A stretch of DNA of 64,000 nucleotides from Myxococcota bacterium. GTDB taxonomy: Bacteria > Myxococcota_A > UBA9160 > JAFDET01. Under the pieces are notes generated by a model, which saw only the letters and a program-made list of their open reading frames with translations, was not told the origin of the DNA and ran no database searches. How positions within the stretch are numbered: the first letter of the stretch is position 1; each line of letters opens with the position of its first letter. This document shows positions 25,616-59,546 of this stretch, in pieces. The stretch lies in NCBI GenBank assembly GCA_028278065.1, contig JANQFA010000038.1, positions 2,497-66,496 on the forward strand, written 5' to 3'. The translations under genes were made by a program, and so were the position numbers.

Positions 25616-27028
25616 TCATTCCCCAGCGGGCCGCCAGCTCCCGTGGAAGCCGAAGGGGATGCGGTGGGGCATCTTGATCACCGCAGCCGGAGCGCCCTCG
25701 AAGTCCTGGGTGTCGATCACCAGGAGATCGCTGCGGTGCTCGCTCCGGCGGTACACGAGCGAGAGCACGTAGCCGTCGCCTTCCGCCGCATCCGGAGCGC
25801 GGGGAATGAAGCAGGGCTCGCCTGCGACATCGCCCGCCCCCAGACGGTGGACTTCGCGTCGATCCAGCTCCAGGTCGTAGTGGAAAAGGCTGTTGAAGCC
25901 CTCTGGCTGGCCCTTCATGTTGCGGTAGTCGACGCTTCCGAGCGTGAATGCGTGGCGGTAGGACTTCCCTACGTGGCGCGGATCGACACAGCCGAACTCG
26001 GCCGGCGCGTCGTCGAGCTGCTGCTCCGTCAACCCGCCGCCCGCCAGGTCCACCGTCCAGCGCCGCAACGTGGGGGGACGGGTCTCCGGACCCTCGGCGA
26101 GCGGGCCGTGGGGAAAGATGAAGAGGTCCGCGATCACCGTCTCGCCCCGGGTCTGGGCGTTCACCGTGTGGAAGGAGTAGCAGCCCTCGTGCTCGAACCA
26201 GAGCATGTCGTCGACCCTGCCGTCCCGGGGCAGCACACCGAGACGAGTGCCGCGCTCGGGCTGCCAGACGAGCGGGAGGCCCGCGCCGGAAGTCGCCTCG
26301 AAATCGAACACCGCCGGGAAGATCGGGAAGAGCGCATGCTCGGCGGAGACCAGGAAGTCGTGCATCATGCTCGGGAACGGAGCCTCGAGCTCGAAGCTGC
26401 GCGTGAGTCGACCCTCCCGATCGACCGTGTGGTACACGAGCCAGGGTGCGACGGGGCTGTACCCGAAGCCGATCCACTCCCCTGTGTCCGGATCGATCTT
26501 CGGGTGCGCGGTCATGACGTCCGGGTTGCGCTGGTCGGCGCGCACCCGATAGAAGTCACCGTCGTAGTCGTGGATGCCGCGGGTCTCGAGGGTGATGGGG
26601 TCCAGCTCGTGAGGAGGCCCCGCCTCCCAGAGCGACAGCAGCCTGCCGGCGTGCCAGATGACGTGGGTATTGGACGCGTTCGGGCTGACGCCCTCCGCGC
26701 GCGGGTCCGGAGACCCCTTCGGACCGATTCCACCGAAGATCGCCGCTCCGTACTTCCGCTGGGCGGCGAAGCGCGCCGTGCGCACCCAGCGATTCAGGTA
26801 GCTGCAGCGCCCGCCCTCGAAGTGGAAGGCGTGGATCATGCCGTCGCCGAAGAACCAGTGGTAGTTGGGCCCCGGCGGATAGGGAGGATTGGAGCCGTTG
26901 CGGTAGTAGCTTCCTCGCAGCGACTCGGGGATCTCCCCCTCCACCCTGAGGTCCGGGATGTCCTCCTCCTCCAGCCAGGGGGCGAAGTTGCCCTCGGCGA
27001 ACGGGTTCGAAGGAAAGGGATCGCTCAT
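25616..27028 (-). CDS. Carotenoid-cleavage / lignostilbene-type dioxygenase family protein
   Basis: 470 aa. The N-terminus NFAPWLEEEDIPDLRVEGEIPESLRGSYYRNGSNP...FGDGMIHAFHF and further conserved His-containing blocks (VMTAHPKID, MMHDFLVS, CYSFHTVNA) are typical of the seven-bladed propeller CCO family. Confidence 0.92.
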   Translation of the reverse strand: MSDPFPSNPFAEGNFAPWLEEEDIPDLRVEGEIPESLRGSYYRNGSNPPYPPGPNYHWFFGDGMIHAFHFEGGRCSYLNRWVRTARFAAQRKYGAAIFGGIGPKGSPDPRAEGVSPNASNTHVIWHAGRLLSLWEAGPPHELDPITLETRGIHDYDGDFYRVRADQRNPDVMTAHPKIDPDTGEWIGFGYSPVAPWLVYHTVDREGRLTRSFELEAPFPSMMHDFLVSAEHALFPIFPAVFDFEATSGAGLPLVWQPERGTRLGVLPRDGRVDDMLWFEHEGCYSFHTVNAQTRGETVIADLFIFPHGPLAEGPETRPPTLRRWTVDLAGGGLTEQQLDDAPAEFGCVDPRHVGKSYRHAFTLGSVDYRNMKGQPEGFNSLFHYDLELDRREVHRLGAGDVAGEPCFIPRAPDAAEGDGYVLSLVYRRSEHRSDLLVIDTQDFEGAPAAVIKMPHRIPFGFHGSWRPAGE

Positions 27029-27071: not shown

Positions 27072-28481
27072 TCATGCCGCCTCGACCAGCTCGGCGAACG
27101 AACGCTCCAGCATCTCGCAGAAGTCGTCGAGCTCCGCCATCGCCGTGCCGTCGGCGTCCAGTCCGATGAACAGCTGATCCCGGTACCCGTAGAGGGCGAC
27201 GCTGACGGGACAGTGGGGAACGATGGGAGCGATGGGGTACGCAGCCGTGATCTCGGCGCCGGCGATGAAGCGGGTCACCGGCACGCCCGGGATGTTGGTC
27301 ACGATGAGATCCATGGAGCTGCCGGACGCCAGGACGGCGGCGCGGTGGAGCCGGCGGGGAAGCAGGGCGAGCATGTGGGAGAAGTTGGCGAAGACCTCGA
27401 GCGCGGGGGCATCGGCGTGCTCCTCGAACATCTGGTGGATGAGGGCGAAGCGCTCGCGCGGATCGCGCACCGCGATGGGCAGGTGGAAGATGTGCGCCGT
27501 GAGCCGGTTGCCCACGTGGGTGTCCAGGCCCTGGTTGTCGCGGGGACGCAGATTGACCGGCACGGTCGTGAGCACGGTCTCGGCGTCCCCCCGGCCGCGG
27601 CTCCGGTGCCATTCGCCCATGGCGCCGGCCACTCCGGTCATCAGGAGCTCCACGGTCCGCCCGCCCAGGCGCTTCCGGGCGGCCCGCAGCGGCTCGAACG
27701 GGATCGCGAGTCCGCCCAGGCGCCGTGCGCGGCCGTAGCGGTCGAGGTGGGCCCGGCTCGAGTTGAAGAAGGTCTCCGACAGCTCCGCCCCTCCGCGAGC
27801 CAGGTCGAGCATTCGCGACGGATTCCGGACCAGATCCTGCATCGCCCGGCCCATGCTGCGCGCGCGCCCGAAGTCGTCGCTCATCCGGTCGCGGATGGCT
27901 CGCGCGACCAGGGCGGCGAAGCTCGGCTCGGGCCAGGTACCGGGGCTCTCTTCAGGGGGAGGCGGAGCCGGATCCCCGTCCCGTTCCGCATCGGTCAGTG
28001 CGCCCAGGACGGCGTTGGCTCCGACGCCGTCGGCGATGGAGTGGTGGAGGCGACAGAAGAGCGCCGAGCGCCCATCGGGCCGGTCGATCTCGATGAGCTC
28101 CCACAGCGGTCGTGCACGGTCGAAGGGGCGCTCGTAGATCGGGCCGATCGAGTGGAACAGCTCGCTCAGCTCGTTCTCCGCATCGACGCCGGCGTGGAGC
28201 GAGTAGCGCCGCAGGTGGAAGTCGAGATCGAAGGTGGGATCCCGCTCCCAGCGCGGGAGCGCCATGTCGAACGGCGCATCCACGACCCGCTGGTCCAGCC
28301 GCGGCACCGCCTGGACGGCCCGCCACGCGTTGGCGCGCAGACGCTCGGGATCCGGAGGCCGGTCCAGGAGCATCAGCATCGCCATCGTGTTGCGCTGGCG
28401 CGGCTGGTCGCTGTACCACCAGTTGAGGTCTTCGGGGGTCAGCGGCTCGCGAGCCGGCTCACGGGGGGGCTGCGCCATCAC
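27072..28481 (-). CDS. WS/DGAT-family acyltransferase (wax ester synthase / acyl-CoA:alcohol acyltransferase)
   Basis: 469 aa with the catalytic HHxxxDG motif (LHHSIADGVG) and the C-terminal NIPGVP block. Confidence 0.88.
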   Translation of the reverse strand: MMAQPPREPAREPLTPEDLNWWYSDQPRQRNTMAMLMLLDRPPDPERLRANAWRAVQAVPRLDQRVVDAPFDMALPRWERDPTFDLDFHLRRYSLHAGVDAENELSELFHSIGPIYERPFDRARPLWELIEIDRPDGRSALFCRLHHSIADGVGANAVLGALTDAERDGDPAPPPPEESPGTWPEPSFAALVARAIRDRMSDDFGRARSMGRAMQDLVRNPSRMLDLARGGAELSETFFNSSRAHLDRYGRARRLGGLAIPFEPLRAARKRLGGRTVELLMTGVAGAMGEWHRSRGRGDAETVLTTVPVNLRPRDNQGLDTHVGNRLTAHIFHLPIAVRDPRERFALIHQMFEEHADAPALEVFANFSHMLALLPRRLHRAAVLASGSSMDLIVTNIPGVPVTRFIAGAEITAAYPIAPIVPHCPVSVALYGYRDQLFIGLDADGTAMAELDDFCEMLERSFAELVEAA

Positions 28482-28545
28482 GCACCTCGGCCGAGAGCGG
28501 TCGACCCCGCAGCGCCGAGCCGGACGGCCGCCTCGGGGCGGGGCA

Positions 28546-29565
28546 TCATGCCAGCCACTGTGGCCACACGGGCATCACGCTGTACTCCGCCGTTCCCGTG
28601 CCCGTCTCGCCGGTCTCCTCCACCTCGAAGTCACAGAAGGCCTCGTAGCAGTCCATGCGGTTCTCGAGGTCGTTCTCGGCGCGCAGCCAGAGCTTGATCG
28701 TCCCGTGGTGCTTCGTGCTCTTCACGTGGATCACCTCACCGTCGGGCATGGTGAACTCGTAGCGGAAGGAGTTCGCCTCGCGCACCGAGGCGCTGCCGTC
28801 GTTGGGAGCGATCTCCCCCTTGGCGTTCAGCAGCGGCCGACTCCCGTCCTTGTCCGACACGAATCCGCCGACCGAACGCTCCTTGGGGTCCTTCTCGTTC
28901 TGGTAGTAGAGCGCGAAGACGTTGATGTGCTTGTCGGGGAGCTGGATCGAGGGCCAGAAGTGCGCCGCGAAGTGCGCCTCGTCGACCTTCCAGTTCTGGG
29001 GCACCGCGAAGCGGCTGGTCCAGGTGTGGTCGCGATGGCTCCAGCAGTTGATCTCGCGGGTTTCCCCCGCCGCCGGCCCGCCGCGGATCTCGAACTGGCC
29101 CGTGCAGTCCATGGCCTGCTCGTAGTGCCCTCCGTAGAACTCGTCGAAGAGCTTCATCGGGTCGCCGCTGGGCAGCGAGTTGTCGTAGTTGAAGGGGGCG
29201 AAGCGTCCCTTGAAGTCCAGGTCGAAGGCATACTTCTCCCAGTCCAGGGCGATGCGGATGTGCTCCCAGGGCTCCACGACCTCGTAGGTCATGCGCCCGT
29301 CGGTCCAGGGGCCGTTGTCGGGCTCGGGGCTCAGCGGGATCTTGTTGCCGTAGAGCTGGACGACTCCGTCGATCACGTAGAGGGCCTCGAAGCGGGCGTA
29401 CCCCTTGTTGGTGAGATGGAAGTGGTTCACGCCGTGGATTCCGGCCGCGGGGTCGACCACGCTCACCCAGAGCGTGTCCCCGAACAGCACCTTGTCGGAG
29501 CCTTCTCGTCCGCGGTGCCTGAACTCGTCCTCGTCCACCAGACCTTCCGGAGCCTTGAATGACAC
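28546..29565 (-). CDS. Conserved protein of unknown function, 339 aa (paralogue of 54584-55603)
   Basis: Strong coding signal and no TM or signal peptide. It is about 71% identical (242/339 in my gap-free hand count) to the second copy. Invariant blocks include IHGVNHFHLTNKG, FDLDFKGRFAPFNY, CWSHRDHTWTSRF and DCYEAFCDFEVEETGE. Confidence 0.8.
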   Translation of the reverse strand: MSFKAPEGLVDEDEFRHRGREGSDKVLFGDTLWVSVVDPAAGIHGVNHFHLTNKGYARFEALYVIDGVVQLYGNKIPLSPEPDNGPWTDGRMTYEVVEPWEHIRIALDWEKYAFDLDFKGRFAPFNYDNSLPSGDPMKLFDEFYGGHYEQAMDCTGQFEIRGGPAAGETREINCWSHRDHTWTSRFAVPQNWKVDEAHFAAHFWPSIQLPDKHINVFALYYQNEKDPKERSVGGFVSDKDGSRPLLNAKGEIAPNDGSASVREANSFRYEFTMPDGEVIHVKSTKHHGTIKLWLRAENDLENRMDCYEAFCDFEVEETGETGTGTAEYSVMPVWPQWLA

Positions 29566-29638: not shown

Positions 29639-30322
29639 TCAGCTCCCGTGGGACTCCCGCTCGAGGAGCTGCAGACTGGCAGCGGCTTCCTGGTGCTCGC
29701 GCACCAGCGCCTCGAGATCCTTGGCGGCCTTTCCGCGGGCGAGACCCAACAACGTCACCGCGGCCCCGTAGAGCATGGTCGGCCGCAGTGCCTCGTCGCT
29801 GATCTGGTGGAGCGCCCAGGCGAAGGTCATCACGTTGATCTGCGCGGCGAGCCGCTCGGCCAGGGGCCGCGCGTGCGCCCACTGGGCGAGCTGACGGTCT
29901 GCCCGCATCTCCTCGAGGGCACGGGTCAGCTCGCGCGCGAGCCCGCCCGCCACCACGTCGGCGAGCCCGGCGGTCGTGTCCGAGGTATCGCGCATGAAGC
30001 TCACGAGCGAGCGCGAGTAGGCGGCGTGGCGTGGAGTCTCCCGGCTCAGGGTCTCGATCAGCGAGATCACCCGCGAGAGACCGCTCTCCGAGCCGACGAC
30101 GCCGACCATGCCGACCAGCTCGGTGAAGTAGGATTCGACCGCCGTCGAGAGCAGCTCGGTCTTGCTGCCGAAGAGCGCGTACAGGGTCGGAACCGACACG
30201 AGTCCACGCTCGGCGAGATCGCGCATGGTGACCGCGTCGTAGCCCCGCTCCGCGATGAGGTCGCGCGCGGCTTCCAGGATGCGCCGCCGCCGCTCCTCTC
30301 TCTGCCGAACCACCAGACCCAC
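29639..30322 (-). CDS. TetR/AcrR-family transcriptional regulator
   Basis: The HTH region is RRRRILEAARDLIAERGYDAVTMRDLAERGLVSVPTLYALFGSKTELL. The start is placed at GTG 30320-30322 (alternative GTG 30313), and the longer 325-aa track ORF is rejected. About 227 aa. Confidence 0.8.
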   Translation of the reverse strand: MGLVVRQREERRRRILEAARDLIAERGYDAVTMRDLAERGLVSVPTLYALFGSKTELLSTAVESYFTELVGMVGVVGSESGLSRVISLIETLSRETPRHAAYSRSLVSFMRDTSDTTAGLADVVAGGLARELTRALEEMRADRQLAQWAHARPLAERLAAQINVMTFAWALHQISDEALRPTMLYGAAVTLLGLARGKAAKDLEALVREHQEAAASLQLLERESHGS

Positions 30323-42363: not shown

Positions 42364-43575
42364 TCAGTCGTCCTGGAGGCGCGGAAGGCCGAGGACCTTC
42401 TCCGCGATGACGTTGCGCATGATCTCGCTCGTTCCCCCACCGATGGAGTGCGCGAGGGCATCGAAGTAGGCGGCGTGCCAGCGCCCCCGCTCGACGACGT
42501 GGGGGGAGCGCTTGGCCACGGGGCCGAGCGGCCCTTCGAGCTGCAGGGCCGTTCGCGTCATCTCCTGCCTCACCTCGGAGGCGAAGAGCTTGCCGACCGA
42601 CGCCCCGGGCCCGGGCGGCTTGCCCGCGATCTGGTCGCTCAGGGTGCGGTAGCCCAGGTGGCGCAGGCCCTCGATCTCGATCCAGTGCTGGGCCAGGGCC
42701 CGTCGCGCACCCGCGTCCGCCAGGGCCTGGTCCGTGCCCCGCTTCAGGCCTCCCGCCATGCGCCACAGGCGCCCCAGGGTCTCCTCCAGGGCGATCACCC
42801 CGGAGAGCCCGCTCCGCTCGTGGTCGAGCGAGCTGCGCGCGATCGACCACCCCCGGTTCAGCTCGCCCACCAGGTTGTCGCGCGGAACGCGCACGTCGTC
42901 GAGGAACACCTCGCTGAAATGCTGGCCGCCGGCCGCGTTGCGCAGAGGGCGAACGTTGATGCCCGGCGTCTTCATGTCGAGCAGCAGGTAGCTGATGCCC
43001 TCCCGCTTGGGAGCATCGGGATCCGTGCGAACCAGCAGGAACATCCAGTTCGAGAGGAAGGCCAGGCTGGTCCACACCTTCTGTCCGTTGACGACGAACT
43101 CGTCGCCGTCGAGCTCGGCGCGGCAGCGCAGCGACGCCAGGTCACTACCCGCCTCGGGCTCGCTGAAGCCCTGACACCAGAGGTCGTCGGCGCTCAGGAT
43201 GCGCGGCAGGAAGCGCCGCTTCTGCTCCTCGCTGCCGTGCTGCACCAGGGTGGGCCCGATGATCGTGAGCCCGATGGTGTTGATCAGCGGAGGCGTGCGG
43301 ACCCTCGCCATCTCCTCGGCGCAGATCACCTGCTCGGTGAACGAGGCGTCCTGGCCCCCGTACTCCTTCGGCCAGGCGAGCCCGACATAGCCGGCTTCGT
43401 GGAGCCGTCGTGCCCAGGCGCGAGCGCCGGCGAGCGGGTCCTTGGCAGCCCCGGGGTCCTTCTCGGCCTGCCTCATGACCGCATTGGCCGAGCCGCCCTC
43501 GCCGAGGTTGTCCCTCAGCCACGCGCGGAGGCGCTGTCGATAGTCCTCGTCTGCCTTCGAGAATTCGAGATCCAC
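42364..43575 (-). CDS. Acyl-CoA dehydrogenase family protein (first of an adjacent pair)
   Basis: 403 aa with a GTG start overlapping the LLM stop by 1 nt. ACAD blocks are WCQGFSEPEAGSDLASL and IGGGTSEIMRNVIAEKVLGLPR. Confidence 0.9.
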   Translation of the reverse strand: MDLEFSKADEDYRQRLRAWLRDNLGEGGSANAVMRQAEKDPGAAKDPLAGARAWARRLHEAGYVGLAWPKEYGGQDASFTEQVICAEEMARVRTPPLINTIGLTIIGPTLVQHGSEEQKRRFLPRILSADDLWCQGFSEPEAGSDLASLRCRAELDGDEFVVNGQKVWTSLAFLSNWMFLLVRTDPDAPKREGISYLLLDMKTPGINVRPLRNAAGGQHFSEVFLDDVRVPRDNLVGELNRGWSIARSSLDHERSGLSGVIALEETLGRLWRMAGGLKRGTDQALADAGARRALAQHWIEIEGLRHLGYRTLSDQIAGKPPGPGASVGKLFASEVRQEMTRTALQLEGPLGPVAKRSPHVVERGRWHAAYFDALAHSIGGGTSEIMRNVIAEKVLGLPRLQDD

Positions 43576-44567: not shown

Positions 44568-44596
44568 TTCGGCTGACTGTCCTCCTCGCGTGCCCT

Positions 44597-47746: not shown

Positions 47747-49462
47747 ATGCCGGGCCCTGAAAGAGAGTACGACGTCATCGTCGTCGGCGGAGGCATCAAC
47801 GGCCTCACCGCGGCGATCTATCTCCAGAAGTCGGGCCTGCGGGTCGCCTGCTTCGAGCGCAAGCTCGAAGCGGGATCCGGATGCTGCACCGAAGAGGTGA
47901 TGCAGCCCGGCGTGAAGGTGAACCTGTGCGCCTGCAACATGGCGACCCTCTGGTCGCCCGCCTACGGCGACCTCGAGCTCGAGAAGTTCGGCCTCGACAT
48001 GCTCACCTCCAGCGAGTGGGGGATGTTCCACCCCTTCAAGGACCGTTCGGCGGTGATGTTCAACTCGTTCCACGCCCAGAAGACCTACGAGCACTTCAGG
48101 AGCCGGAACGCGCATGATGCCGAGCTGTACAAGACGGCCTTCAACGTCATGGGCCCGATGCTCGGCGACACCATGATGGGCTCGATGTTCAGCCAGGCGA
48201 CCAACGGCCCCGAAGAGGCCGTGGCGGCCGAGGGCCTGGGCTCCGCCCTCCGCGCGATCATCCCCGAGATCCCCGAGAACGTCCACGAGCTCAACGGAAT
48301 CGAGCTCGCCGAGGCGGTCTACCACGACGAGAAGATCCGCACGGCCATTCTCGCCAACTGCATCATGGCGGGCTCCCACCCCTGGGATCGGGGCATGTCG
48401 ACTCTCATGCCCATCGTCTTCCCCATCATGCAGGCAGTCCAGAGCGTCACCTGGACCTGCCGCGGCGGGAGCCACTCCCTCGTGCACGCCCTCGCCTCCT
48501 GCTTCGCCTACCACGGCGGGCGGATGTTCACCGGCTGCCCGGTGGACGAGATGATCATGGAGGGCGACTCGGTCAAGGGCATCGCGCTCTCGAAGCACGC
48601 CATCTTCCCCGAGGCGGAGGTCCGGGCACGCCGCGCGGTGGTGAGCAACCTCTCGTGCCATCCGACCTTCCTGGATCTGATCGGCGAGGACAGGCTTCCC
48701 GACTGGGTGAAGGACGGCGTCGACGCCTACAAGAACGACGAGACGGTTCTCTTCGCCAACTACTGGGTGCTCGACCGGCCGCCCCGCTGGGAGGGCTACC
48801 CGGAGGAGATCAACGAGGCGTACGGCTTCAACTTCGGGATGGAGAGCGTCGACGACATCCGTCGGCTCGAACACTGCCTCGAGAACGACGAGCTTCCCGA
48901 CCCGCCCATCGTCTCCGGGCTCTCGGTGCAGGGCTTCGCCCTGGCCGATCCCAGCCAGGCGCCCGAGGGCCAGTACACGATGATGGCCTGGTCGAACGTG
49001 CCGTACAAGCTCCCGCAGCTCGGAGGACCCGAGAAGTGGGACGAGATCCGCGAGAGCTACGGGGACAAGGTCGACGACCTGCTCCGGGAGTACAACCCCG
49101 GCCTGATGGACTCGGTGGTGGACCGCTACTGCAACTCGCCGCTCGACTACTACCGGAAGAACCCCAGCCAGGTGATGGGCAGCACGACGAGCGGCCCCAC
49201 CTGCCTGAAGTGGTACGGCACCGCCCGCCCCTTCCCGGGCTGCGGCGCGCCGCGCACGCCCTTCGAGAACCTCTATCTCTCGAACTCGATCTGGCCTTTC
49301 GGCACCAGCAACCTCGGAGCCGGCTACGTGGCGGCCAGCATCGTCGCCGAGGATCTCGGCGTGCGCAAAGACCAGGACGATTGGTGGCGACACAAGAGCC
49401 TGGAAGCGGGATTCGAGCTGCTGAAGCGACGCGGCATCGAAGTGGATCTCAACATCTCCTGA
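47747..49462 (+). CDS. CrtI/phytoene-desaturase-family FAD-dependent oxidoreductase (subunit A-like)
   Basis: 571 aa. The N-terminal dinucleotide fold is EYDVIVVGGGINGLTAAIYLQKSGLRVACFE, and both the length and the C-terminal region are typical of COG1233-type enzymes. Confidence 0.88.
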   Translation: MPGPEREYDVIVVGGGINGLTAAIYLQKSGLRVACFERKLEAGSGCCTEEVMQPGVKVNLCACNMATLWSPAYGDLELEKFGLDMLTSSEWGMFHPFKDRSAVMFNSFHAQKTYEHFRSRNAHDAELYKTAFNVMGPMLGDTMMGSMFSQATNGPEEAVAAEGLGSALRAIIPEIPENVHELNGIELAEAVYHDEKIRTAILANCIMAGSHPWDRGMSTLMPIVFPIMQAVQSVTWTCRGGSHSLVHALASCFAYHGGRMFTGCPVDEMIMEGDSVKGIALSKHAIFPEAEVRARRAVVSNLSCHPTFLDLIGEDRLPDWVKDGVDAYKNDETVLFANYWVLDRPPRWEGYPEEINEAYGFNFGMESVDDIRRLEHCLENDELPDPPIVSGLSVQGFALADPSQAPEGQYTMMAWSNVPYKLPQLGGPEKWDEIRESYGDKVDDLLREYNPGLMDSVVDRYCNSPLDYYRKNPSQVMGSTTSGPTCLKWYGTARPFPGCGAPRTPFENLYLSNSIWPFGTSNLGAGYVAASIVAEDLGVRKDQDDWWRHKSLEAGFELLKRRGIEVDLNIS

Positions 49463-49496: not shown

Positions 49497-51125
49497 GTGG
49501 CAAACCTCGACGACAAGTACGACGTGATCATCATCGGCGGCGGCCCGAACGGACTGACGGCCGCCGGGTACCTGGCGAAGGCCGGCGCAAAGACGCTCCT
49601 CCTCGAACGCCACCACGAGGGCGGCGGCGGGCTCGTCACCGAGGAGTTCTCGGGCTTCCGCTTCAACACCCACGCGAAGCTGATGCTGATGATGGACTGC
49701 ATGCCGCCCTACGCGGACATGAACCTCGAGAGCTGGGGCTGCCGCTACGTCATTCCCGACGCGGCGCTCTCCCTGCTCACCCGGGACGGCAGGGCCCTCA
49801 CGCTCTACAGCGACATCCAGCGCTCCGCCAAGAGCATCGCGCAGTTCTCGACCGACGACGCCGAGCGCTACATCGGCCTGATGCAGGACTGGTACACCAT
49901 CGTCAACGAGGCCCTGATTCCGGCCACCTACTCCCTCCCCCTGCCCATGCTCGACATGGTCGTCAGCTACCAGCAGAGCGAGCTGGGGCGGGTCGTGAAC
50001 GACATGGCCGAGGAGACGTTCCTCGAGACCCTGGCCGCCGCCGGCTTCGAGAACAGCCTCGTCGAGGCCGCGCTGCTCTTCATGGGCACCATGTACGGCA
50101 TCGATCCCGAGGACGGCCTCGGCTTCCTCCTGCCCCTGTACGCGAACCGGGTGCTCCACTCGGCGGTGATCCTGTCCGGCTCCCACCAGCTGGCCGCCTC
50201 CCTGTCGCGCTTCGCGAACAACGCCGGCGCGAGCCTGGAGCGGGCCGCAGAGGTCACCAAGATCCTCACCGACGGAACCAAGGCCGTCGGGGTCCGCCTG
50301 GCGAGCGGCGAGGAGGTCTTCGCGGAGAAGATCATCGCCACGACCGATCCGGAGATGACCTTCCTCGACCTGGTCGGCGAAGACGTCTGCAACGCCGCGT
50401 CGCCCACCCTCGTCGCCCAGACGAAGGAGTGGGAGTGGGAGTCGGTCAGCCTCTACAACGTCCACTTCGCGCTCTCGGAGCGCCCCCGATACGCCGCCGC
50501 CGAGGACGATCCGGAGGTGGATCGGTCGCTGATCAAGGTCATGGGGCTCGAGTCCGTGGACGAGGTGATGAACCACATCAAGACGGTGAAGGAAGGCGGC
50601 TTCAGCCTGGCGGGCTCCGCCACCACCTTCACCGACTACGATCCCATGCAGGCCCCCATCGACGTCGAGCCCGGCTCCGCGGTCGCCTGCTTCGAGACCA
50701 TCGCCCCTTACGAGAACCGGGACGGCGACTGGGACGACGTCGGCGAAGGCTACGTCAAGAGGATCCGTGACATGTGGAGCGAGTACGCTCCCAACCTCAG
50801 GGATGCGACCGTGGTGCGGCACTACGTGAACCACCCGAAGGCGATCGAGGCCAAGCTGCCCAACATGAAGCGCGGATCGATCAAGCACGGGGCCTACCTT
50901 CCGACCCAGATGCTCTCGAACCGACCCAACCCCGACTGCTCGTCGTACCGCACGCCGATCGAGAACCTCTACGTGGGCGGGGCCAGCGTGTGGCCCGGCG
51001 GGATGGTGCTGCTCGGCGGGGGCTACAACGTGGCCGGGGTGGTGGCGGACGACCTGGGGCTCGAACGCTGGTGGAACGAGCCCGAGTACGTGGTCGAAGC
51101 ACGCAAGAAGGGACTGGTCGGCTGA
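49497..51125 (+). CDS. CrtI/phytoene-desaturase-family FAD-dependent oxidoreductase (subunit B-like)
   Basis: 542 aa with a GTG start. Contains KYDVIIIGGGPNGLTAAGYLAKAGAKTLLLE and a C-terminal NLYVGGASVWPGG block. It is a diverged paralogue of the preceding gene. Confidence 0.88.
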   Translation: MANLDDKYDVIIIGGGPNGLTAAGYLAKAGAKTLLLERHHEGGGGLVTEEFSGFRFNTHAKLMLMMDCMPPYADMNLESWGCRYVIPDAALSLLTRDGRALTLYSDIQRSAKSIAQFSTDDAERYIGLMQDWYTIVNEALIPATYSLPLPMLDMVVSYQQSELGRVVNDMAEETFLETLAAAGFENSLVEAALLFMGTMYGIDPEDGLGFLLPLYANRVLHSAVILSGSHQLAASLSRFANNAGASLERAAEVTKILTDGTKAVGVRLASGEEVFAEKIIATTDPEMTFLDLVGEDVCNAASPTLVAQTKEWEWESVSLYNVHFALSERPRYAAAEDDPEVDRSLIKVMGLESVDEVMNHIKTVKEGGFSLAGSATTFTDYDPMQAPIDVEPGSAVACFETIAPYENRDGDWDDVGEGYVKRIRDMWSEYAPNLRDATVVRHYVNHPKAIEAKLPNMKRGSIKHGAYLPTQMLSNRPNPDCSSYRTPIENLYVGGASVWPGGMVLLGGGYNVAGVVADDLGLERWWNEPEYVVEARKKGLVG

Positions 51126-51610: not shown

Positions 51611-52606
51611 ATGGCGGAGGTCACCGCCGAGATGGCGGCGCCGCTGGAGAAGGCGCTCAGGGAGAGGGCCCCCCGCCTGGGAGTCCACCGGGTCCTCGCC
51701 ATCGAGCGCCTCACCACCGGGCTCTCGTCCCAGAGCTACAGCGTCGAGACGGAGACCGCCTCGGGGCCACTGCGCCTCGTGATGAGGGTAGAGCCCGAGC
51801 ACGGCGTGATCCCCCCCTACGACATCGCCCGGGAGTACCGCCTGCTTCGCGAGGTACACGAAGCCGGCCTGCCCACCCCGGGTGTGGTCCACCTCGAAGA
51901 GGATCAGTCCGTGGTCGGCGGCCGCTTCATCCTGATGACCTTCGTGGAGGGGGTCATCTACCGGAACATGGACGAGCGCCTCGCAGACGACCCTGCCCGA
52001 CTGGCCGCGATGCAGGAGCGGTTCGTCGAGATGCTGGCTCGAATCCACGATACGCCCCAGACCGTGCTGCCGAACCACACCAGCGGCGAGGACGCGGCGC
52101 GCGCCGAGGTGGCCATCTGCCGCCACCGGCTGGAGCGGACGGAGCTCCTGCCCTCTCCGATCATCCGCCACGCCCTCGACGTCCTCCACGAGCACGCGCC
52201 GTCGGCCCAGCGCCTGGCGCTGCTGCATGGGGACTACCGACTGCCGAACCTGATGTGGAAGGGTGAGACGATCTCGGGTGTGCTCGACTGGGAGCTGGCA
52301 CGCGTAGGCGACCCTCTGAGCGACCTGGCCTTCACGCAGACCATCGGCCGCGGCCTCTGCTCGATCGAAGGGGAGCTGGCGGCCCGCTACGGCGAGCTCA
52401 CCGGGATCGAGATCGACGATCGCCGGCTCGTCTACTATCGGCTGCTCGAGATGGTGAAGGGCACGATCATCGGCCTCGCGGGTGCCTACGACCTGGCCCA
52501 TGGCGGCGACGACCTGCGCCTGCTCTCCGTGGCCCGCATCGCGGCCGCCGGACAGGCGATCATGGGAGGCCTCGAGGCACAGCTCGAGGCATTCCTGGAG
52601 ACCTGA
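51611..52606 (+). CDS. APH-like phosphotransferase (kinase-fold) family protein
   Basis: 331 aa. The catalytic loop is LLHGDYRLPNLMW and the metal-binding segment is VLDWELARVGDPLSDLAF. It starts 3 nt after the S2 stop. Confidence 0.85.
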   Translation: MAEVTAEMAAPLEKALRERAPRLGVHRVLAIERLTTGLSSQSYSVETETASGPLRLVMRVEPEHGVIPPYDIAREYRLLREVHEAGLPTPGVVHLEEDQSVVGGRFILMTFVEGVIYRNMDERLADDPARLAAMQERFVEMLARIHDTPQTVLPNHTSGEDAARAEVAICRHRLERTELLPSPIIRHALDVLHEHAPSAQRLALLHGDYRLPNLMWKGETISGVLDWELARVGDPLSDLAFTQTIGRGLCSIEGELAARYGELTGIEIDDRRLVYYRLLEMVKGTIIGLAGAYDLAHGGDDLRLLSVARIAAAGQAIMGGLEAQLEAFLET

Positions 52607-52609
52607 AGC

Positions 52610-53062
52610 ATGATCGTGCTCGACTCGGCCCAGATCCTCACCGCGGTGGGGCTCTCCCTCCGGAACCATGTGCTCCCCGCACTCGAGGACGATTTCGCCC
52701 GGGTGCAGGTGATGTCGGCCCTGAAGGCTCTCGCCGAGGTGAGCGACCGCCTCGAGAACGGCGATCCGGCCGAACGGTCGAACGCCATCATCGAAGGAGG
52801 TGTGCGCGAGCTCGCCGACTCGATCCGCTCCGACGCGCCCGACTTCGCGGCGAAGCTCGACGCCGCCGTGGCGGCGAAGCCCGAAGGAGATGCTCCCCGC
52901 GACCGCTCGAGACAGCTGGGAGAGGCCTTGTGGGAGCTCTGCGCGCGGGACGAGGGCGCGGCGGCGGCGCGCCTGCTCGCTCTCCTGCAGGCCGAGGCCC
53001 TGCGGACGATGGGCGAGGACAATGCCTGGATCTGCCCCGAAGCGATCGAGTCGCTCACCTGA
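52610..53062 (+). CDS. Hypothetical helical protein (150 aa)
   Basis: It starts 3 nt after the kinase stop, has G/C-rich third positions and an Ala/Leu/Glu-rich helical composition. No family recognised. Confidence 0.6.
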   Translation: MIVLDSAQILTAVGLSLRNHVLPALEDDFARVQVMSALKALAEVSDRLENGDPAERSNAIIEGGVRELADSIRSDAPDFAAKLDAAVAAKPEGDAPRDRSRQLGEALWELCARDEGAAAARLLALLQAEALRTMGEDNAWICPEAIESLT

Positions 53063-53095: not shown

Positions 53096-53623
53096 ATGAA
53101 GACGGTGTCGAACGACGAGCTCGCGGCGATCGCGCCGCACTTCGCCCAGATGGGATACGTCGTGCGCGATCTGGCTGCGGCCGAGACGTGGTTCCGGGAC
53201 ATCGTGGGCGTACCCGCCTGGACGCGGATGGAGAACATGACGTTCGGCGCGGAGTGCAGCCATCGCGGTCGACCCGCGGACTACGCCGCCCACCTCTCTC
53301 TCGGCTACCTCGGCGACACCCAGATCGAGCTGATCGAGCCCCTCCGCGGCGAGAGCCTCTACGCCGAGTTCCTGCAGAGCAAGGGCCCTGGACTCCATCA
53401 CCTCGCGTTCGAGGTGCCCGACTTCGAAGCCACGGTCGACGCCCTCGGCGCGGCGGGACTCGAGCTGCTGGGCTCCGGTGCGATCGGGGCCGGGAGTCGC
53501 TTCGCCTACTTCGATTGCGTGTCGGCCCAGGCGTCGGTGATCGAGATCCTGGGCTACGACGAGGGCACACGCGCCTTCATGCAGCAGCTCAGGAAGCAGA
53601 GCGCGGAAGCGCTCCGCGACTGA
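53096..53623 (+). CDS. VOC (glyoxalase/bleomycin-resistance/extradiol dioxygenase) family protein
   Basis: 175 aa with paired beta-alpha-beta-beta-beta modules and His/Glu ligand blocks (HFAQMGYVV, IELIEP, GLHHLAFEV). Confidence 0.85.
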   Translation: MKTVSNDELAAIAPHFAQMGYVVRDLAAAETWFRDIVGVPAWTRMENMTFGAECSHRGRPADYAAHLSLGYLGDTQIELIEPLRGESLYAEFLQSKGPGLHHLAFEVPDFEATVDALGAAGLELLGSGAIGAGSRFAYFDCVSAQASVIEILGYDEGTRAFMQQLRKQSAEALRD

Positions 53624-53650: not shown

Positions 53651-54496
53651 GTGCGGGAGCTGGCTGGACGCGTAGCGGTCGTGACGGGCGGCGCCGGAGG
53701 CATCGGCCGGGGCATGGCCCTCGCCTTCGCCGAAGCGGGCATGGACGTCGTGATCGCGGACATCGACGAAGACGGCGCCCGCGCCGTCGCCGCCGAAATC
53801 GAGGCGCTCGGCCAGCGCTGCCTGCCCCGTCGCGTGGACCTGGCGAAGCCGGCCGAAGTAGAGGCCCTGGCCGAGGAGACCTGGGGCGAGCTGGGCGGCG
53901 CCCACCTCCTCTGCAACAACGCCGGGGTCACGACCTTCGGGATGATGTGTGACGGCATCCCCGACGCGGATTGGGACTGGGTCCTGACCGTCAATCTGAG
54001 GGGCGTCGTCCATGGCCTCCAGTCCTTCCTCCCGCGCATGCGAGAGCTCCCGGGCGAGAAGCACGTGGTGAACACGGCGTCGATCGCCGGCATCTCGCCC
54101 GGAGTCTTCGTCGCCCCCTACGCCGCCAGCAAGCACGCGGTCGTCGGGCTATCCGAGACGCTGCGCGAGGAGGGCGCCGCCCATGGGATCAGCTGCTCGG
54201 TGCTCTGCCCCAATGCCGTGGCCACCGGGATCGTGGAGGCGGACCGCAACCGGCAGGCCGAGTTCGGCGGACCCTCCGGCGCGGGGAACGAGATGATCGC
54301 CGCCTTCGTGGCCGCTGGTCTCGCCCCCACCTACGTCGGCCGGATGGTCCGTCAGGCGGTGATCGACGACCTGCCCTTCATCTTCACTCACGCGGACACC
54401 CGCGAGCTGGTGGAGGCCCGCTACGAGCGCATGAAGGAGTCCTTCGCCTGGGCGGATCGCTGGCGCGAAGCGAACCCGGAACCCGATCCCCTATGA
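53651..54496 (+). CDS. Short-chain dehydrogenase/reductase (SDR)
   Basis: 281 aa with a GTG start. Contains TGGAGGIGRG, NNAG and YAASK. Confidence 0.88.
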   Translation: MRELAGRVAVVTGGAGGIGRGMALAFAEAGMDVVIADIDEDGARAVAAEIEALGQRCLPRRVDLAKPAEVEALAEETWGELGGAHLLCNNAGVTTFGMMCDGIPDADWDWVLTVNLRGVVHGLQSFLPRMRELPGEKHVVNTASIAGISPGVFVAPYAASKHAVVGLSETLREEGAAHGISCSVLCPNAVATGIVEADRNRQAEFGGPSGAGNEMIAAFVAAGLAPTYVGRMVRQAVIDDLPFIFTHADTRELVEARYERMKESFAWADRWREANPEPDPL

Positions 54497-54583: not shown

Positions 54584-55603
54584 ATGTCATTTGCACCCCC
54601 GGACGGACTCACCGAAGAGGACGAGTTCCGTCATGCCCTCGTGGATGCGCCCAGCAACGTCCTCTTCGGCGACAGCCTCTGGGTGAGCGTGGTCGATCCG
54701 GAGGCGAACATCCACGGCGTCAACCACTTCCATCTCACCAACAAGGGCTTTGCACGCTACGAGGCCCTGTACCTCATCGACGGTGTCCTGCAGCAGTACG
54801 GCAACAAGTTCCCCCTGCCGCGCCAGATCGAGCACGGTCCCTGGGACGACGGGCGGCTGCGCTACGAGGTGGTCGACCCCTACAACCACATCCGCATCAC
54901 GCTGGACTGGGACAACTTCTCGTTCGACCTCGACTTCAAGGGCCGCTTCGCGCCCTTCAACTACGCCAACTCCTCCCCGAACGGCGATCCCATGCGGGTC
55001 TTCGACGAGTACTACGGGGGACACTTCGAGCAGGCCATGAACTGCACGGGCACACTCGAGATCCACGGAGGCCGCGCCAAGGGACAGACCCGCCAGATCG
55101 ACTGCTGGAGCCACCGCGATCACACCTGGACCTCGCGTTTCAACGAGCGCAACGACTGGTACGTGCGGGAGGGCCACTTCCCCGCCCACTTCTGGCCCTC
55201 CATCCAGCTCCCGGATCGACACATCAACGTTCTCGGGATGTACTACCAGAACGACACGCCCATCGAAGAGCGGGTCAATGCCGGGTTCGTCTCCGACAAG
55301 GACGGCAGCCGGCCGATCCTGAACGCCAAGGGATGGATCATCCCCAACGACGGTACGCCGGAGGTGCGAACCGCCAAGGAGTTCCGGTACGAGATCACCC
55401 TGCCCGACGGCGAAGTCATCCACGTCAAGAACACCCGTCACCACGGGACCGTCAAGCTCTGGATGCGGGCCGAGAACGACCTCGAGAACCGCCTGGACTG
55501 CTACGAGGCCTTCTGCGACTTCGAGGTCGAGGAGACGGGCGAAGTCGGCACCGGCACTGCCGAGTACGACGTGATGCCGCCGCTTCCCCAGTGGCTGGTC
55601 TGA
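54584..55603 (+). CDS. Conserved protein of unknown function, 339 aa (paralogue of 28546-29565)
   Basis: Colinear with, the same length as, and about 71% identical to the first copy. It is flanked by SDR genes. Confidence 0.8.
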   Translation: MSFAPPDGLTEEDEFRHALVDAPSNVLFGDSLWVSVVDPEANIHGVNHFHLTNKGFARYEALYLIDGVLQQYGNKFPLPRQIEHGPWDDGRLRYEVVDPYNHIRITLDWDNFSFDLDFKGRFAPFNYANSSPNGDPMRVFDEYYGGHFEQAMNCTGTLEIHGGRAKGQTRQIDCWSHRDHTWTSRFNERNDWYVREGHFPAHFWPSIQLPDRHINVLGMYYQNDTPIEERVNAGFVSDKDGSRPILNAKGWIIPNDGTPEVRTAKEFRYEITLPDGEVIHVKNTRHHGTVKLWMRAENDLENRLDCYEAFCDFEVEETGEVGTGTAEYDVMPPLPQWLV

Positions 55604-55623: not shown

Positions 55624-56376
55624 ATGGGCAAGCTGGACGACAGGATCGCGATCATCACCGGCGCGGCGTCCGGTATCGGCCAGGGCATGGCCGAGCTCTT
55701 CGCTGCGGAAGGCGCGACGGTGGTGGTCGCGGACATCCAGGACGAGCCCGGCCGGGCCCTGGCCGACGCTCTCGGCGGGACCTACCTGCACTGCGACGTG
55801 ACGGATCCGGCTGCGGTCGAGCAGCTCATCCAGGAGGCGGTCGATCGGCACGGGCGAATCGACGTGCTCGTGAACAACGCGGGCATCGAGGGTGAGCAGG
55901 CCCTCACCGCCGAGAGCTCCCTGGAGAACTGGCGACGGGTGATGTCCATCAACGTCGACGGCGTCTACTACGGCATGAAGTACGCCCTCCCCGTGATGGT
56001 CTCGCAGAAGGGAGGGGTCATCCTCAATACCGCGTCGACGGTGGGCCTCAACGCGCTGGGTGCGATCCCCGCCTACAGCGCCTCGAAGGCCGGGGTGATC
56101 CAGCTGAGCAAGGCCGTGGCGATCGAGTACGCGATGCACGGGATCCGGGTCAACGCCCTCTGCCCCTCCGTCGTCGAGACCCCTCTGCTGACGAGCTTCA
56201 TCGAGAACACCCCGGATCCCGAGTCCGCACGAACCGGCCTGGCTTCTCTCAACCCGATGCCGGGCATGGTGACCGTGGACGCCGTCGCGAAGGCGGCGCT
56301 CTTCCTCGTGAGCGACGACGCTTCCTTCATCACGGCGGTCGCCCTTCCCATAGACGGTGGCTACACCGCCCGCTAG
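55624..56376 (+). CDS. Short-chain dehydrogenase/reductase (SDR)
   Basis: 250 aa with TGAASGIGQG, NNAG, YSASK and PIDGGYTA. Confidence 0.9.
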   Translation: MGKLDDRIAIITGAASGIGQGMAELFAAEGATVVVADIQDEPGRALADALGGTYLHCDVTDPAAVEQLIQEAVDRHGRIDVLVNNAGIEGEQALTAESSLENWRRVMSINVDGVYYGMKYALPVMVSQKGGVILNTASTVGLNALGAIPAYSASKAGVIQLSKAVAIEYAMHGIRVNALCPSVVETPLLTSFIENTPDPESARTGLASLNPMPGMVTVDAVAKAALFLVSDDASFITAVALPIDGGYTAR

Positions 56377-56442: not shown

Positions 56443-56859
56443 GTGGACGAGTCGAAGCTGCAGTCGCTCATCGAGCGCAACGAAGTCATCGAGACCTTCA
56501 ACCGCTATGCAACCGGGATCGACCTGCGCGACCGGGACCTGTACCGCGGCTGCTTCACCGACGAGCTCCAGGTGAGCATGGGCGGCGGAGAGCCGAAGAC
56601 CTGCCCGGCAGACGAGTGGGTGGACCAGGCCTTCGAGGCCGTCAACGCGTTCCAGGGCACGCAGCACATCATCACCAACCACGTGATCGATCTCCAAGGA
56701 GACGAAGCGGACGCGACGGCGTACCTCCACGCCCAGCACTTCAATCCGGACGGCGTCTTCACCGTCGGAGGCTACTACTCGAACCACCTGGTACGCGCCG
56801 GATCGACCTGGAAGATCGATCGGCTCGGGCTGGTGGTGACCTGGACCCTCAACCGGTGA
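56443..56859 (+). CDS. NTF2-like (SnoaL_4-type) protein
   Basis: 138 aa with a GTG start. The pattern [27 protein letters not shown]...TQHIITNH is typical of SnoaL-like cones. Confidence 0.8.
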
Positions 56860-56902: not shown

Positions 56903-57748
56903 GTGACGGGCAGGCTGGATGGCCAGGTGGCGCTGATCAGCGGCGGCGCCAGCGGGATCGGCGAGGCGACCGCCCGCATGTTCGTCGACCACGGCGCTCG
57001 TGTGGTCATCGCAGACCTCCAGGGCGAGCGCGGGCGCCGACTCGCCGACGATCTGGGGGAGGCGTCGGTGTTCCAGCACACCGACGTCACGCGTGAGGAT
57101 TCGATCGCGGACGCCGTCGACCGCGCCGTCGCCGAGTTCGGGCAGCTCGATTGCCTGTTCGCGAACGCCGGGATCGTGGGCGCGGTCGGACCGATCGACG
57201 AGATCCCCGCCGAGGAGTACGACGCCACGATGGCGGTCAATCTGCGCGGGGTCTTCCTCGCGATGAAGCACGCGGCTCGCGTGATGAAGCCCCGGGGAGC
57301 CGGCACGATCCTCTGCACGGCGAGCATCGCAGCACTGCAGGGCGGCCTGGGCCCCCACGTCTACGCAGCAGCCAAGAGCGCCCTCATCGGACTGACCCGC
57401 AACGTGGCGGCCGAGCTCGCCTCCCAGGGAATCCGGGTCAACTGCATCGCGCCCGGGAACATGGCGACCGAAATGATCGCCGGCCTCGTGACCGGAGACC
57501 CCGACAGGGTGGCGGAGGTCGCACAGGGAATGGCGGGAACCTCGCCGATGCCGGGACGTCCCGGCCTGCCGAGCGACGTCGCCCACGCTGCACTCTACCT
57601 CGCCAGCGACGCCGGGGCCTTCGTGAGTGGCCACACCCTGGTGGTGGACGCCGGCCTCACCTCGGGAAGCGGCCAGTCCATGCCGCTCTTCGCGAACCAC
57701 GCACCCATGATCCGGGAGGCAGGGCGCCGGGGGCTGCCGGACGAGTGA
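56903..57748 (+). CDS. Short-chain dehydrogenase/reductase (SDR)
   Basis: 281 aa with a GTG start. Contains SGGASGIGEA, ANAG and YAAAK. Confidence 0.88.
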   Translation: MTGRLDGQVALISGGASGIGEATARMFVDHGARVVIADLQGERGRRLADDLGEASVFQHTDVTREDSIADAVDRAVAEFGQLDCLFANAGIVGAVGPIDEIPAEEYDATMAVNLRGVFLAMKHAARVMKPRGAGTILCTASIAALQGGLGPHVYAAAKSALIGLTRNVAAELASQGIRVNCIAPGNMATEMIAGLVTGDPDRVAEVAQGMAGTSPMPGRPGLPSDVAHAALYLASDAGAFVSGHTLVVDAGLTSGSGQSMPLFANHAPMIREAGRRGLPDE

Positions 57749-59444: not shown

Positions 59445-59546
59445 CTTCTCTCCCGTCGGGCTGCCGCGACGCAATCGCGCGGCCCCTGGCAATCGTGCGA
59501 AGCCGGCGCACGCACCGGCACCGGGTCTCAGCGGTTCTGCGACGAG

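Follow-up and report, generated by a model that had tools for sequence, protein, structure and literature searches.

Two paralogous proteins of a Myxococcota contig form an unannotated branch of the Rv3169/25-phosphosteroid lyase superfamily and are candidate C–O lyases

We analyzed a window of 64,000 nucleotides (the whole stretch of DNA under study) from contig JANQFA010000038.1 of a Myxococcota bacterium, focusing on two genes that each encode a protein of 339 amino acids, copy 1 (28546..29565, minus strand) and copy 2 (54584..55603, plus strand). No curated family claims either copy. We found that the two proteins belong to a distinct, unannotated branch that lies outside the Rv3169 family yet is homologous to Rv3169 of Mycobacterium tuberculosis and to the 25-phosphosteroid lyase (25-PSL) of Sterolibacterium denitrificans, within a superfamily that comprises Rv3169, 25-PSL and DUF7064-DUF7065 proteins and is AttH-CrtC-like. 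Genes of this branch, hereafter the family, are repeatedly found near APH kinase genes and catabolic genes of the lipid/isoprenoid type. From sequence comparisons and a predicted structure, we propose that the proteins may be C–O lyases acting on hydrophobic, most likely tertiary, isoprenoid- or sterol-like alcohols, and that for copy 2 the leaving group would be a phosphate introduced by the neighboring kinase; we regard this proposal as evenly balanced between right and wrong.

Results

Homology to 25-phosphosteroid lyase

Pfam returned only sub-threshold matches to DUF7065 (PF23213) for the two copies (14.7 and 18.1 bits against a gathering threshold of 27 bits, which leaves both outside that Pfam family), and both matches stop exactly at the RDHTW strand described below. 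Neither copy matched DUF7064 (PF23212) or, at E ≤ 1, the CrtC N-terminal domain (PF07143), and sub-threshold matches to Pfam DUF7352 and NCBIfam Ves were dismissed as chance. The NCBIfam model NF053593 ‘Rv3169 family’ (Rv3169_fam) scored 45.8 bits on copy 1 and 48.6 bits on copy 2 (E-values of 4e-12 and 6e-13), covering residues 90–287. Searching the PDB with one protein alone returned 0 matches at E ≤ 10, and a narrow family profile of 53 members (A1) returned only two chance matches at E ~1. The link to 25-PSL is therefore visible only through structure or through broader and profile–profile searches.

An exhaustive HMMER scan of 1.84 billion representatives with A1 retrieved only 168 clusters at E ≤ 1e-3; these fall into a small core and a tail in which the proteins are ~300 amino acids long. 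Among the remote relatives in this tail (n = 39), DUF7065 was detected in 24, DUF7064 in 20 and the CrtC N-terminal domain in one (6.7e-5), and the DUF7065-DUF7064 order from N to C terminus was found. A broader alignment that combines the window copies with remote relatives (A2) matched 25-PSL over its full length (E = 1.9e-26). When A1 was compared by hhalign with a six-member alignment of the 25-PSL/Rv3169 clade (A3), the two aligned over 284 columns with a probability of 98.6 % (E = 1.1e-15), whereas A1 matched 25-PSL as a lone sequence only weakly (E = 0.009; a probability of 4 %), although the core motif was in register. The 25-PSL query (residues 8–359, rebuilt from the printed A2 alignment) scored 391 bits on Rv3169_fam, and 25-PSL is therefore a true member of the Rv3169 family; it has no Pfam match. 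Three proteins, P0257, P0262 and P0268, were matched by A1 at E ~1e-5 in the library of 1.8e9 proteins, are clear relatives of 25-PSL (1e-23 to 1e-40) and scored 270–339 bits on Rv3169_fam.

A first-pass annotation, made from the sequence alone, had suggested a likeness to AttH/CrtC-type hydratases. This likeness holds at the level of the superfamily, through DUF7065, DUF7064 and the single CrtC N-terminal domain among relatives, but the closest characterized relative is 25-PSL and not a hydratase. The annotation had also singled out an RDH-x-W element as the point of resemblance; it is indeed part of the most conserved motif of the superfamily, but the window proteins themselves give no CrtC match. 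The database searches did not place the proteins in any well-characterized family unrelated to lipid or terpenoid metabolism, which is the result that the annotation had named as contrary to its view.

Predicted structure and conserved residues

The AlphaFold2 model computed on A1 has a pLDDT of 94.9 and a pTM of 0.92, and shows an all-beta protein in which each of the two domains (residues 29–183 and 199–331) has about nine strands. When this model was compared with the PDB using Foldseek, the top five matches were chains of 25-PSL (9g4c, 9g2i and 9fzn; E = 3e-12 to 2e-10), with template modeling (TM) scores of 0.68–0.69 at ~15 % identity. Ranks 6–15 were occupied by the fungal enzymes Fsa2, Phm7, CghA and MycB (7e5t, 7e5v, 6kaw and 7dmn; E = 3e-8 to 5e-7, TM scores of 0.48–0.57), and the matches below them were noise; no CrtC or AttH structure appeared among the top matches. 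The two-domain β-barrel fold of 25-PSL is thus present in the window proteins as modeled, and the enzymes are predicted to be cytoplasmic. These results agree with the earlier expectation of a soluble, beta-rich and probably catalytic protein.

The core motif of the superfamily, HRDHTWTSR, occupies residues 177–185 and is identical in the two copies (29011..29037, minus strand, in copy 1; 55112..55138, plus strand, in copy 2). Its RDHTW element is the most conserved motif of the superfamily and aligns with RDRSW of 25-PSL. The residues that correspond between the window proteins and 25-PSL are H17 and H14, Q150 and Q149, R178 and R175, D179 and D176, H180 and R177, T181 and S178, W182 and W179, R185 and R182, W204 and Y205, E308 and E333, and E327 and E350, respectively. 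H17, Q150, R178, D179, W182, R185 and E327 are the same in the window proteins, the intermediates and 25-PSL; in other words, the core motif R-D-x-S/T-W-x-x-R and the conserved H, Q and E are all present. The PDB sequences of 25-PSL differ from one another at one visible position, which reads RNRSWGVR (D176N) in 9g4c and RDRSWGVR in the others, and 9g4c contains phosphate and desmost-1,4-diene-3-one. Asp-to-Asn changes are typically made to inactivate a catalytic residue, and D176N may be read in the same way.

About 75 residues are invariant in the 53 family sequences, including a dense polar and charged set (H, R, D, E and C). Eleven positions, namely H48, D89, R121, E149, C154, H177, H202, H213, N215, D305 and C306, are invariant in the window branch and absent from 25-PSL.

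The two genes are ancient paralogs under purifying selection

Copy 1 starts with GTG and has 339 codons plus a stop codon, and copy 2 starts with ATG. A BLASTP comparison of the two proteins gave 242 identities in 339 positions (71 %), 83 % positives and 0 gaps. The GC contents at codon positions 1, 2 and 3 were 0.62, 0.42 and 0.91 in copy 1 and 0.62, 0.41 and 0.88 in copy 2, compared with a GC content of ~69 % for the window as a whole. Relative to orthologs in a related metagenome-assembled genome (MAG), dN/dS was 0.063 for copy 1 and 0.056 for copy 2, and a purine-rich ribosome-binding site precedes both genes. No hydrophobic segment was detected (the maximum Kyte-Doolittle mean over 19 residues was 1.1). 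A homology search returned 242 relatives, all labeled ‘hypothetical’, and the E-values of the best 120 of these 242 ranged from 1e-215 to 1e-118. In a neighbor-joining tree the two copies fell into separate clades, each with its own orthologs in related MAGs, which means that the duplication is old. We conclude that both genes are genuine, ancient paralogs under strong purifying selection.

Most of what the first-pass annotation had stated about the genes was borne out, namely the second copy of the same length, the hand count of about 242 gap-free identities, the strong coding signal and the lack of a transmembrane segment. Of the ten invariant blocks that it listed, nine are shared by the two copies at the same positions; the one exception is LPDGEVIHVK, for which copy 2 has the exact sequence and copy 1 reads MPDGEVIHVK.

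An open reading frame (ORF) of 442 codons on the plus strand (28234-29562) covers copy 1 almost wholly. It fails the test of GC by codon position, which the gene on the minus strand passes, and was rejected as a shadow ORF of high GC content. Many other long shadow ORFs occur in the window, and the strand is needed when features are named. Scans around copy 1 found no promoter or terminator, no RNA-seq run containing the region was found, and no tRNA or Rfam family was detected in the window.

Linkage to APH kinases

When 185,579 species-representative genomes were scanned, 144 stretches matched, and 76 loci in about 44 genomes were kept from these; ORFs were called and clustered in all loci, which yielded 98 family instances. 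An APH gene lies within 5 kb of 32 of the 98 instances, in 23 of 45 genomes. In the window, an APH gene is located 2 kb upstream of copy 2 in the same operon, and none is located within 22 kb of copy 1. The tightest synteny core consists of an APH gene, a VOC gene and the family gene, often with no adjacent ACAD gene (the window, L020, L032, L034, L073 and L074).

Genes of the true Rv3169 family show a comparable arrangement. At one such metagenomic locus (L079), an APH gene, a gene for a 174-aa protein and a lyase-like gene form a tight operon, and the APH protein shares 28 % identity with the window kinase (E = 2e-26). A correspondence between this 174-aa protein and the 150-aa protein encoded next to the window kinase was rejected (E = 2.4). 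Another metagenomic locus (L077) carries two Rv3169-family paralogs of the 25-PSL clade, an SDR gene and a gene in which APH is fused to an SCP2 sterol-carrier-type domain (9603-10979), an association that supports a lipid as the probable substrate of the kinase/lyase pair. This locus adjoins phage-tail-like genes (baseplate J and sheath initiator). The gene downstream of P0268 (L078) was considered as a kinase and rejected, as it looks like a second PSL-like paralog.

The PDB matches of the window kinase include 3ats, which we take to be the APH protein Rv3168. Rv3168 and Rv3169 share an operon in M. tuberculosis, with the adjacent TetR regulator Rv3167c as its repressor (PMC5340868). In Sterolibacterium, a 25-hydroxysteroid kinase of the ‘phosphotransferase family’ and a separate lyase convert tertiary 25-hydroxysteroids to Δ24 alkenes (PMC8449060; PMC11061730).

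Gene neighborhood in the window

Copy 2 lies in a plus-strand operon whose order is a flavoprotein pair, the APH kinase, the 150-aa protein, a VOC protein, an SDR, copy 2, an SDR, a SnoaL_4 protein and an SDR. The first flavoprotein (47747..49462; the ORF opens at 47348, with a likely ATG start at 47747) resembles CtmA and the α subunit of Δ24-steroid desaturase (SD), and the second (49497..51125) resembles CtmB and the β subunit. The two have a CrtI fold, are encoded by adjacent genes and are 27 % identical to each other. Residues 53–60 of the second read GFRFNTHA, which fits exactly the covalent-FMN consensus G-F-L/R-x-N/S-T/L-H-A published for the Δ24-steroid desaturase of Sterolibacterium and the limonene dehydrogenase CtmAB; these two enzymes likewise consist of two adjacent subunits that are ~26 % identical to each other (PMC11061730). 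The corresponding covalent-flavin site of the first flavoprotein reads GVKVNLCA, with Cys in place of His. The first-pass annotation had called these neighbors ‘CrtI-like’; they are better described as a CtmAB/Δ24-steroid-desaturase-like pair, and they are probably the subunits of a heteromeric enzyme that desaturates or hydroxylates terpenoid or sterol chains at an allylic position.

The APH-family (PF01636) small-molecule kinase (51611..52606) is the proposed partner of copy 2. It is followed directly by the 150-aa helical protein (52610..53062), which has no family match and may be an accessory subunit of the kinase. The VOC/Glyoxalase_4 protein (53096..53623) recurs one or two genes upstream of family members elsewhere. 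SDR genes stand immediately upstream (53651..54496) and immediately downstream (55624..56376; the ORF opens at 55333, with a likely ATG start at 55624) of copy 2, and are followed by the SnoaL_4/NTF2-like protein (56443..56859), a conserved +2 neighbor of the family, and by the third SDR of the operon (56903..57748).

Copy 1 belongs to a minus-strand string of TetR, copy 1, WS/DGAT and RPE65 genes, which diverges from three SDR genes. The TetR-family regulator (29639..30322) is located directly upstream on the same strand and ends 73 bp from copy 1, making copy 1 the first gene after TetR, as previously annotated. The TetR ORF extends to 30616; since the TetR_N domain begins at ORF residue 113, the start is likely the GTG at 30322 or 30313. 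The order TetR and then family gene also occurs at three other loci (L001, L003 and L007). The wax-ester/acyl-transferase of the WS/DGAT type (27072..28481) lies 64 bp downstream of copy 1, and the RPE65/carotenoid-cleavage-oxygenase family protein (25616..27028) is the last clear gene of the string. RPE65 homologs were found near family members at nine loci (L019, L024, L026, L029, L030, L047, L051, L055 and L065).

Between the copies, the window encodes acyl-CoA ligases, a double CoA-transferase of family III, a MaoC-like hydratase, an amidohydrolase, an OYE-type reductase, an ACAD and luciferase-like oxidoreductases; this region is a CoA-dependent lipid-catabolic neighborhood. Together with the survey of homologs, in which lipid/isoprenoid-type catabolic genes and APH kinases recur, it agrees with the earlier description of a conserved duplicate within a neighborhood of the lipid/terpenoid type. 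No polyketide synthase (PKS) or nonribosomal peptide synthetase (NRPS) was found in the window or in 76 related loci, nor was a terpene synthase found in the window or the surveyed loci.

Several other features of the window are of note in their own right. Two tandem fusions of CoA-transferase family III, of ~800 aa and with two complete units each, are encoded at 21804-24218 (plus strand) and 34638-37010 (minus strand), and the latter is kept together with acyl-CoA ligase, MaoC-like, amidohydrolase and OYE genes in ~20 related loci, mainly of Acidimicrobiia. Flavin/F420-family genes are unusually dense (430-1353, 43575-45520, 58947-59492 and 59547-60701 on the minus strand, and 63173-63685 on the plus strand). 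They encode four luciferase-like oxidoreductases, one F420H2-quinone-reductase-like protein and one PNPOx-like protein; the 662-aa ORF at 43575-45520, which holds two luciferase-like units in tandem, is probably over-extended, and the PNPOx-like type is a recurrent +1 neighbor of the family elsewhere. Positions 1-20500 hold unrelated housekeeping genes (a BVMO/FMO-like monooxygenase, a heavy-metal P-type ATPase, a patatin, an MscS channel, a GFO/IDH/MocA oxidoreductase, a beta-CASP RNase and DUF2817), and the lipid-catabolic region begins at ~20.9 kb. A reading of this region as a mobile ‘island’ was set aside, as the GC content is flat (0.66–0.73) and the region is syntenic with a contig of a related MAG (L001 and L020).

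Distribution and context in other genomes

One coral-metagenome run contains 95 % of the sampled words of the window. The closest genomic match is the MAG contig JAAELW010000430 (‘bacterium Bpl_16’), which carries both copies in the same arrangement, and the next relatives are labeled Deltaproteobacteria or Myxococcota. Nearly all carriers of the family are MAGs from marine, sediment and freshwater sources; the only cultured ones are Aromatoleum toluclasticum MF63 (NZ_KB899495, 209412-230398) and A. tolulyticum ATCC 51758 (NZ_FTMD01000002, 244255-265241).

Within four genes of the 98 instances, the most frequent neighbors were SDRs (71/98), followed by APH kinases (33/98), zinc-dependent alcohol dehydrogenases (ADHs; 26/98), VOC/Glyoxalase_4 proteins (22/98), acyl-CoA ligases (22/98), a second family copy (21/98), ACADs (16/98), PNPOx-like proteins (15/98), SnoaL_4 proteins (13/98) and OYEs (11/98). 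Three conserved gene strings were recognized. One, found in Binatia, several ‘Deltaproteobacteria’ and Thermoflexaceae, comprises a family gene, PNPOx-like, APH, (a small protein), ADH, VOC, a second family gene, amidohydrolase and SDR; its family-ADH-VOC-family part is kept in a Dehalococcoidia genome with no APH gene in the locus (L071). The string of Aromatoleum and Steroidobacteraceae consists of APH, ADH, VOC, (TetR) and the family gene, and that of the window lineage consists of APH, the 150-aa protein, VOC, SDR, the family gene, SDR and SnoaL. One Acidimicrobiia MAG (L034) has APH, the 150-aa protein, SDR and the family gene with no VOC gene, and other Acidimicrobiia loci have a kinase-free string with a 3β-HSD-like epimerase, SnoaL proteins and SDRs. 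A Binatia counterpart of the 150-aa protein (c34; L055, 12473-12937), likewise encoded directly after the APH kinase, shows only weak similarity (33 % identity, E = 3e-4).

The Acidimicrobiia loci L022-L030 show this kinase-free string in the conserved order SnoaL, 3β-HSD-like epimerase, family gene, SDR and SnoaL_4, and upstream of it lie RPE65 and a 279-aa protein (c14). That 3β-HSD is paired with SnoaL proteins, which are ketosteroid-isomerase-like, hints at chemistry on ring A of steroids or triterpenoids.

The α subunit of a type-II DMSO-reductase-family molybdoenzyme adjoins a family member at five loci (L033, L037, L042, L064 and L070; for example, L037, 17083-19935, and L042, 6275-7312), with the Fe-S β subunit also adjacent at three of them (L033, L042 and L064). 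Among solved structures, the α subunit is closest to perchlorate reductase and ethylbenzene dehydrogenase (EBDH), and these loci echo the Sterolibacterium order of Mo-hydroxylase, kinase and lyase. The ethylbenzene dehydrogenase clade is where steroid C25 dehydrogenase (S25DH) is placed (PMC8449060).

The family is expanded in three marine gammaproteobacterial MAGs, which have at least 12, at least 8 and at least 6 copies per genome; the expanded genomes are the MAG SI047_bin61 (L042, L045, L056, L058, L060-L062 and L065) and the PBRQ and PBRP MAGs, and one locus (L056) holds four copies within 20 kb. Many operons contain deeply divergent pairs of paralogs, which might act as hetero-oligomers or sequentially.

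Discussion

A possible kinase-plus-lyase mechanism

We propose that an isoprenoid, sterol-side-chain or similar lipid alcohol, likely tertiary, would first be phosphorylated by the APH-type kinase (51611-52606), and that the 339-aa protein would bind the resulting phospho-ester in its barrel and eliminate the phosphate to yield an alkene, so that the two proteins together would perform a net ATP-driven dehydration. The phosphate could be held by the Arg/His set H17, R178, H180 and R185, the developing carbocation could be shielded by W182 and W204, and D179 with E327 could serve as acid/base. Copy 2 would work in cis with the CtmAB-like pair, the kinase, the VOC protein, the SDRs and the SnoaL-like protein. 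Copy 1, in its context of TetR, WS/DGAT and RPE65, may carry out the same chemistry on a different substrate, either with a kinase supplied in trans or as a direct (de)hydratase with water.

Several observations weigh against this proposal. Identity to 25-PSL is only ~15 %, and both copies, at 46–49 bits, miss the curated cutoff of 150 bits of Rv3169_fam. The putative catalytic role of D176 in 25-PSL is read solely from D176N in a PDB entry, and the invariant residues specific to the window branch (H48, E149, C154, H177, H202, H213, D305 and C306) could mean a different chemistry or a metal site. In addition, two thirds of the family instances, copy 1 included, have no kinase within 5 kb; this is weaker counter-evidence than it appears, because many contigs are short and because the kinase and lyase genes of Sterolibacterium are themselves unlinked. 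Furthermore, the best PDB relatives of the window APH protein include the 4-hydroxyacyl-CoA kinase domain of the ACAD10/11 type; as several clusters also contain ACAD genes, a phosphate eliminase of the ACAD type could be the partner of the kinase instead.

Alternative functions

The main alternative is that the family comprises cofactor- and ATP-independent (de)hydratases of the CrtC/AttH type, which would add water to or take it from an isolated C=C bond or tertiary alcohol in lipids derived from carotenoids or terpenoids; the kinase would then belong with another enzyme, such as a phosphate eliminase of the ACAD10/11 type. We consider this unlikely, but several observations favor it. The window proteins share a superfamily with CrtC (with DUF7064/7065 in most remote relatives and the CrtC N-terminal domain in one), the RPE65 and flavoprotein desaturase neighbors suggest alkene-rich substrates, and two facts that tell against the lyase proposal fall into place here: neither copy 1 nor the whole Acidimicrobiia clade has a nearby kinase, and the window APH protein resembles the kinase domains of ACAD11, with ACADs near 16 of the 98 instances. 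The essential residues of CrtC from R. gelatinosus are H239-x-W241 and Y266-x-D268 (PMC4717167); H180-T-W182 of the window proteins mirrors the former, but the latter pair has no obvious counterpart, as no Y-x-D was seen at the expected spacing (a comparison made with no CrtC sequence aligned). Moreover, the sequences gave no CrtC match at E ≤ 1, compared with matches of the order of 1e-12 to Rv3169_fam and a profile–profile probability of 98.6 %; no CrtC or AttH structure ranked among the top Foldseek matches; and the synteny core of APH, VOC and the family gene often has no adjacent ACAD.

The pericyclases at Foldseek ranks 6–15, together with the recurrent SnoaL/NTF2-like and polyketide-cyclase-like (PF10604) neighbors, would suit a carbocation- or pericyclic-type isomerase or cyclase that rearranges a polyene or terpenoid intermediate, analogous to Fsa2, Phm7, CghA and MycB. 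We find such a function highly improbable: the structural match is clearly weaker than that to 25-PSL and is unaccompanied by sequence similarity, the context is catabolic (CoA ligases, ACAD and CoA-transferases) with no PKS, NRPS or terpene synthase, and the charged R-D-H...R motif fits anion binding better than a purely hydrophobic cyclization chamber. Least probable of all, in our judgment, is a non-catalytic, lipocalin-like binder or carrier that feeds hydrophobic substrates to the catabolic enzymes. Its barrel fold with a hydrophobic interior, the lack of a cofactor motif and the presence of up to 12 copies per genome are what would be expected of substrate-specific binders, but ~75 invariant residues with a dense polar and charged set at a dN/dS of 0.06 are not, and the motif conserved here contains the residue mutated in 25-PSL, while the sole characterized homolog is an enzyme.

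Wider implications

Ordinary dehydrogenases cannot process tertiary alcohols or saturated isoprenoid termini, which are chemical dead ends for them. To our knowledge, the only known oxygen-free biological solution is that of Sterolibacterium, which hydroxylates, phosphorylates and eliminates, and its lyase was identified and solved only recently. The kinase-plus-lyase proposal, if true, would offer a first functional handle on a family that carries no annotation. On a more tentative and rather doubtful note, the family, the APH kinases, the CtmAB-like flavoproteins and the EBDH/S25DH-like Mo hydroxylases of other genomes may together represent a widespread, unrecognized toolkit for the ATP-driven dehydration of tertiary alcohols. 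In that case, the oxygen-independent side-chain activation of the Sterolibacterium type would be a common strategy and not one restricted to a few denitrifiers; it would span coral, marine and sediment bacteria (Myxococcota-like, Binatia, Acidimicrobiia and Chloroflexota) and probably mycobacteria (Rv3168-Rv3169), with each paralog tuned to a different terpenoid or sterol substrate. If this deeply conserved and highly duplicated branch does sit beside the same type of kinase in many uncultured marine and sediment lineages, ATP-driven dehydration may be widely used to turn over terpenoids, sterols and carotenoids, as a general module, both in the ocean and in coral holobionts. The Rv3168-Rv3169 operon of M. 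tuberculosis would likewise gain a testable function; its regulator Rv3167c has been tied to phthiocerol dimycocerosate (PDIM) synthesis and to host cell exit (PMC5340868). The family is also a potential source of selective (de)hydration biocatalysts.

Comparison with known systems

The fungal decalin-forming Diels-Alderases Fsa2, Phm7, CghA and MycB, which we take to have been described as AttH-like, are alike in two-barrel architecture, but they share no sequence similarity with the window proteins and sit in a biosynthetic PKS-NRPS context that has no equivalent around them. CrtC carotenoid 1,2-hydratase and AttH (PF07143) belong to the same superfamily and have H-x-W in common with the window proteins, although no direct sequence match was found. 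CrtC acts at the tertiary carbon of an isoprenoid terminus by a carbocation-type acid/base mechanism (PMC4717167). This chemistry center can be likened to that proposed for the window enzymes, with the difference that CrtC adds water, whereas their nearest relative, 25-PSL, eliminates phosphate. Remote relatives carry both DUF7065 and DUF7064, whereas the window proteins show sub-threshold DUF7065 only; neither DUF gives a clue to function. Rv3169 of M. tuberculosis is of the same superfamily and shares the gene logic of a TetR regulator, an APH-family kinase and a PSL-like protein, but it defines an NCBIfam family that the window proteins fail to join.

The closest characterized relative of the window proteins is 25-PSL of Sterolibacterium denitrificans (9fzn, 9g2i and 9g4c, released January 2026), a phosphate-eliminating C–O lyase of the anaerobic cholesterol pathway. 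The window proteins are shorter (339 versus ~362 aa) and lack the C-domain insertions of 25-PSL, they have His in place of its R177, and their branch has its own invariant His/Cys/Asp set. Unlike that of 25-PSL, their gene context includes O2-dependent enzymes (RPE65 and BVMO-like), and their host is uncultured and coral-associated. Nevertheless, the two share the two-domain all-beta fold (TM score of 0.68), and both are tied to APH-type kinases and to lipid/isoprenoid catabolism.

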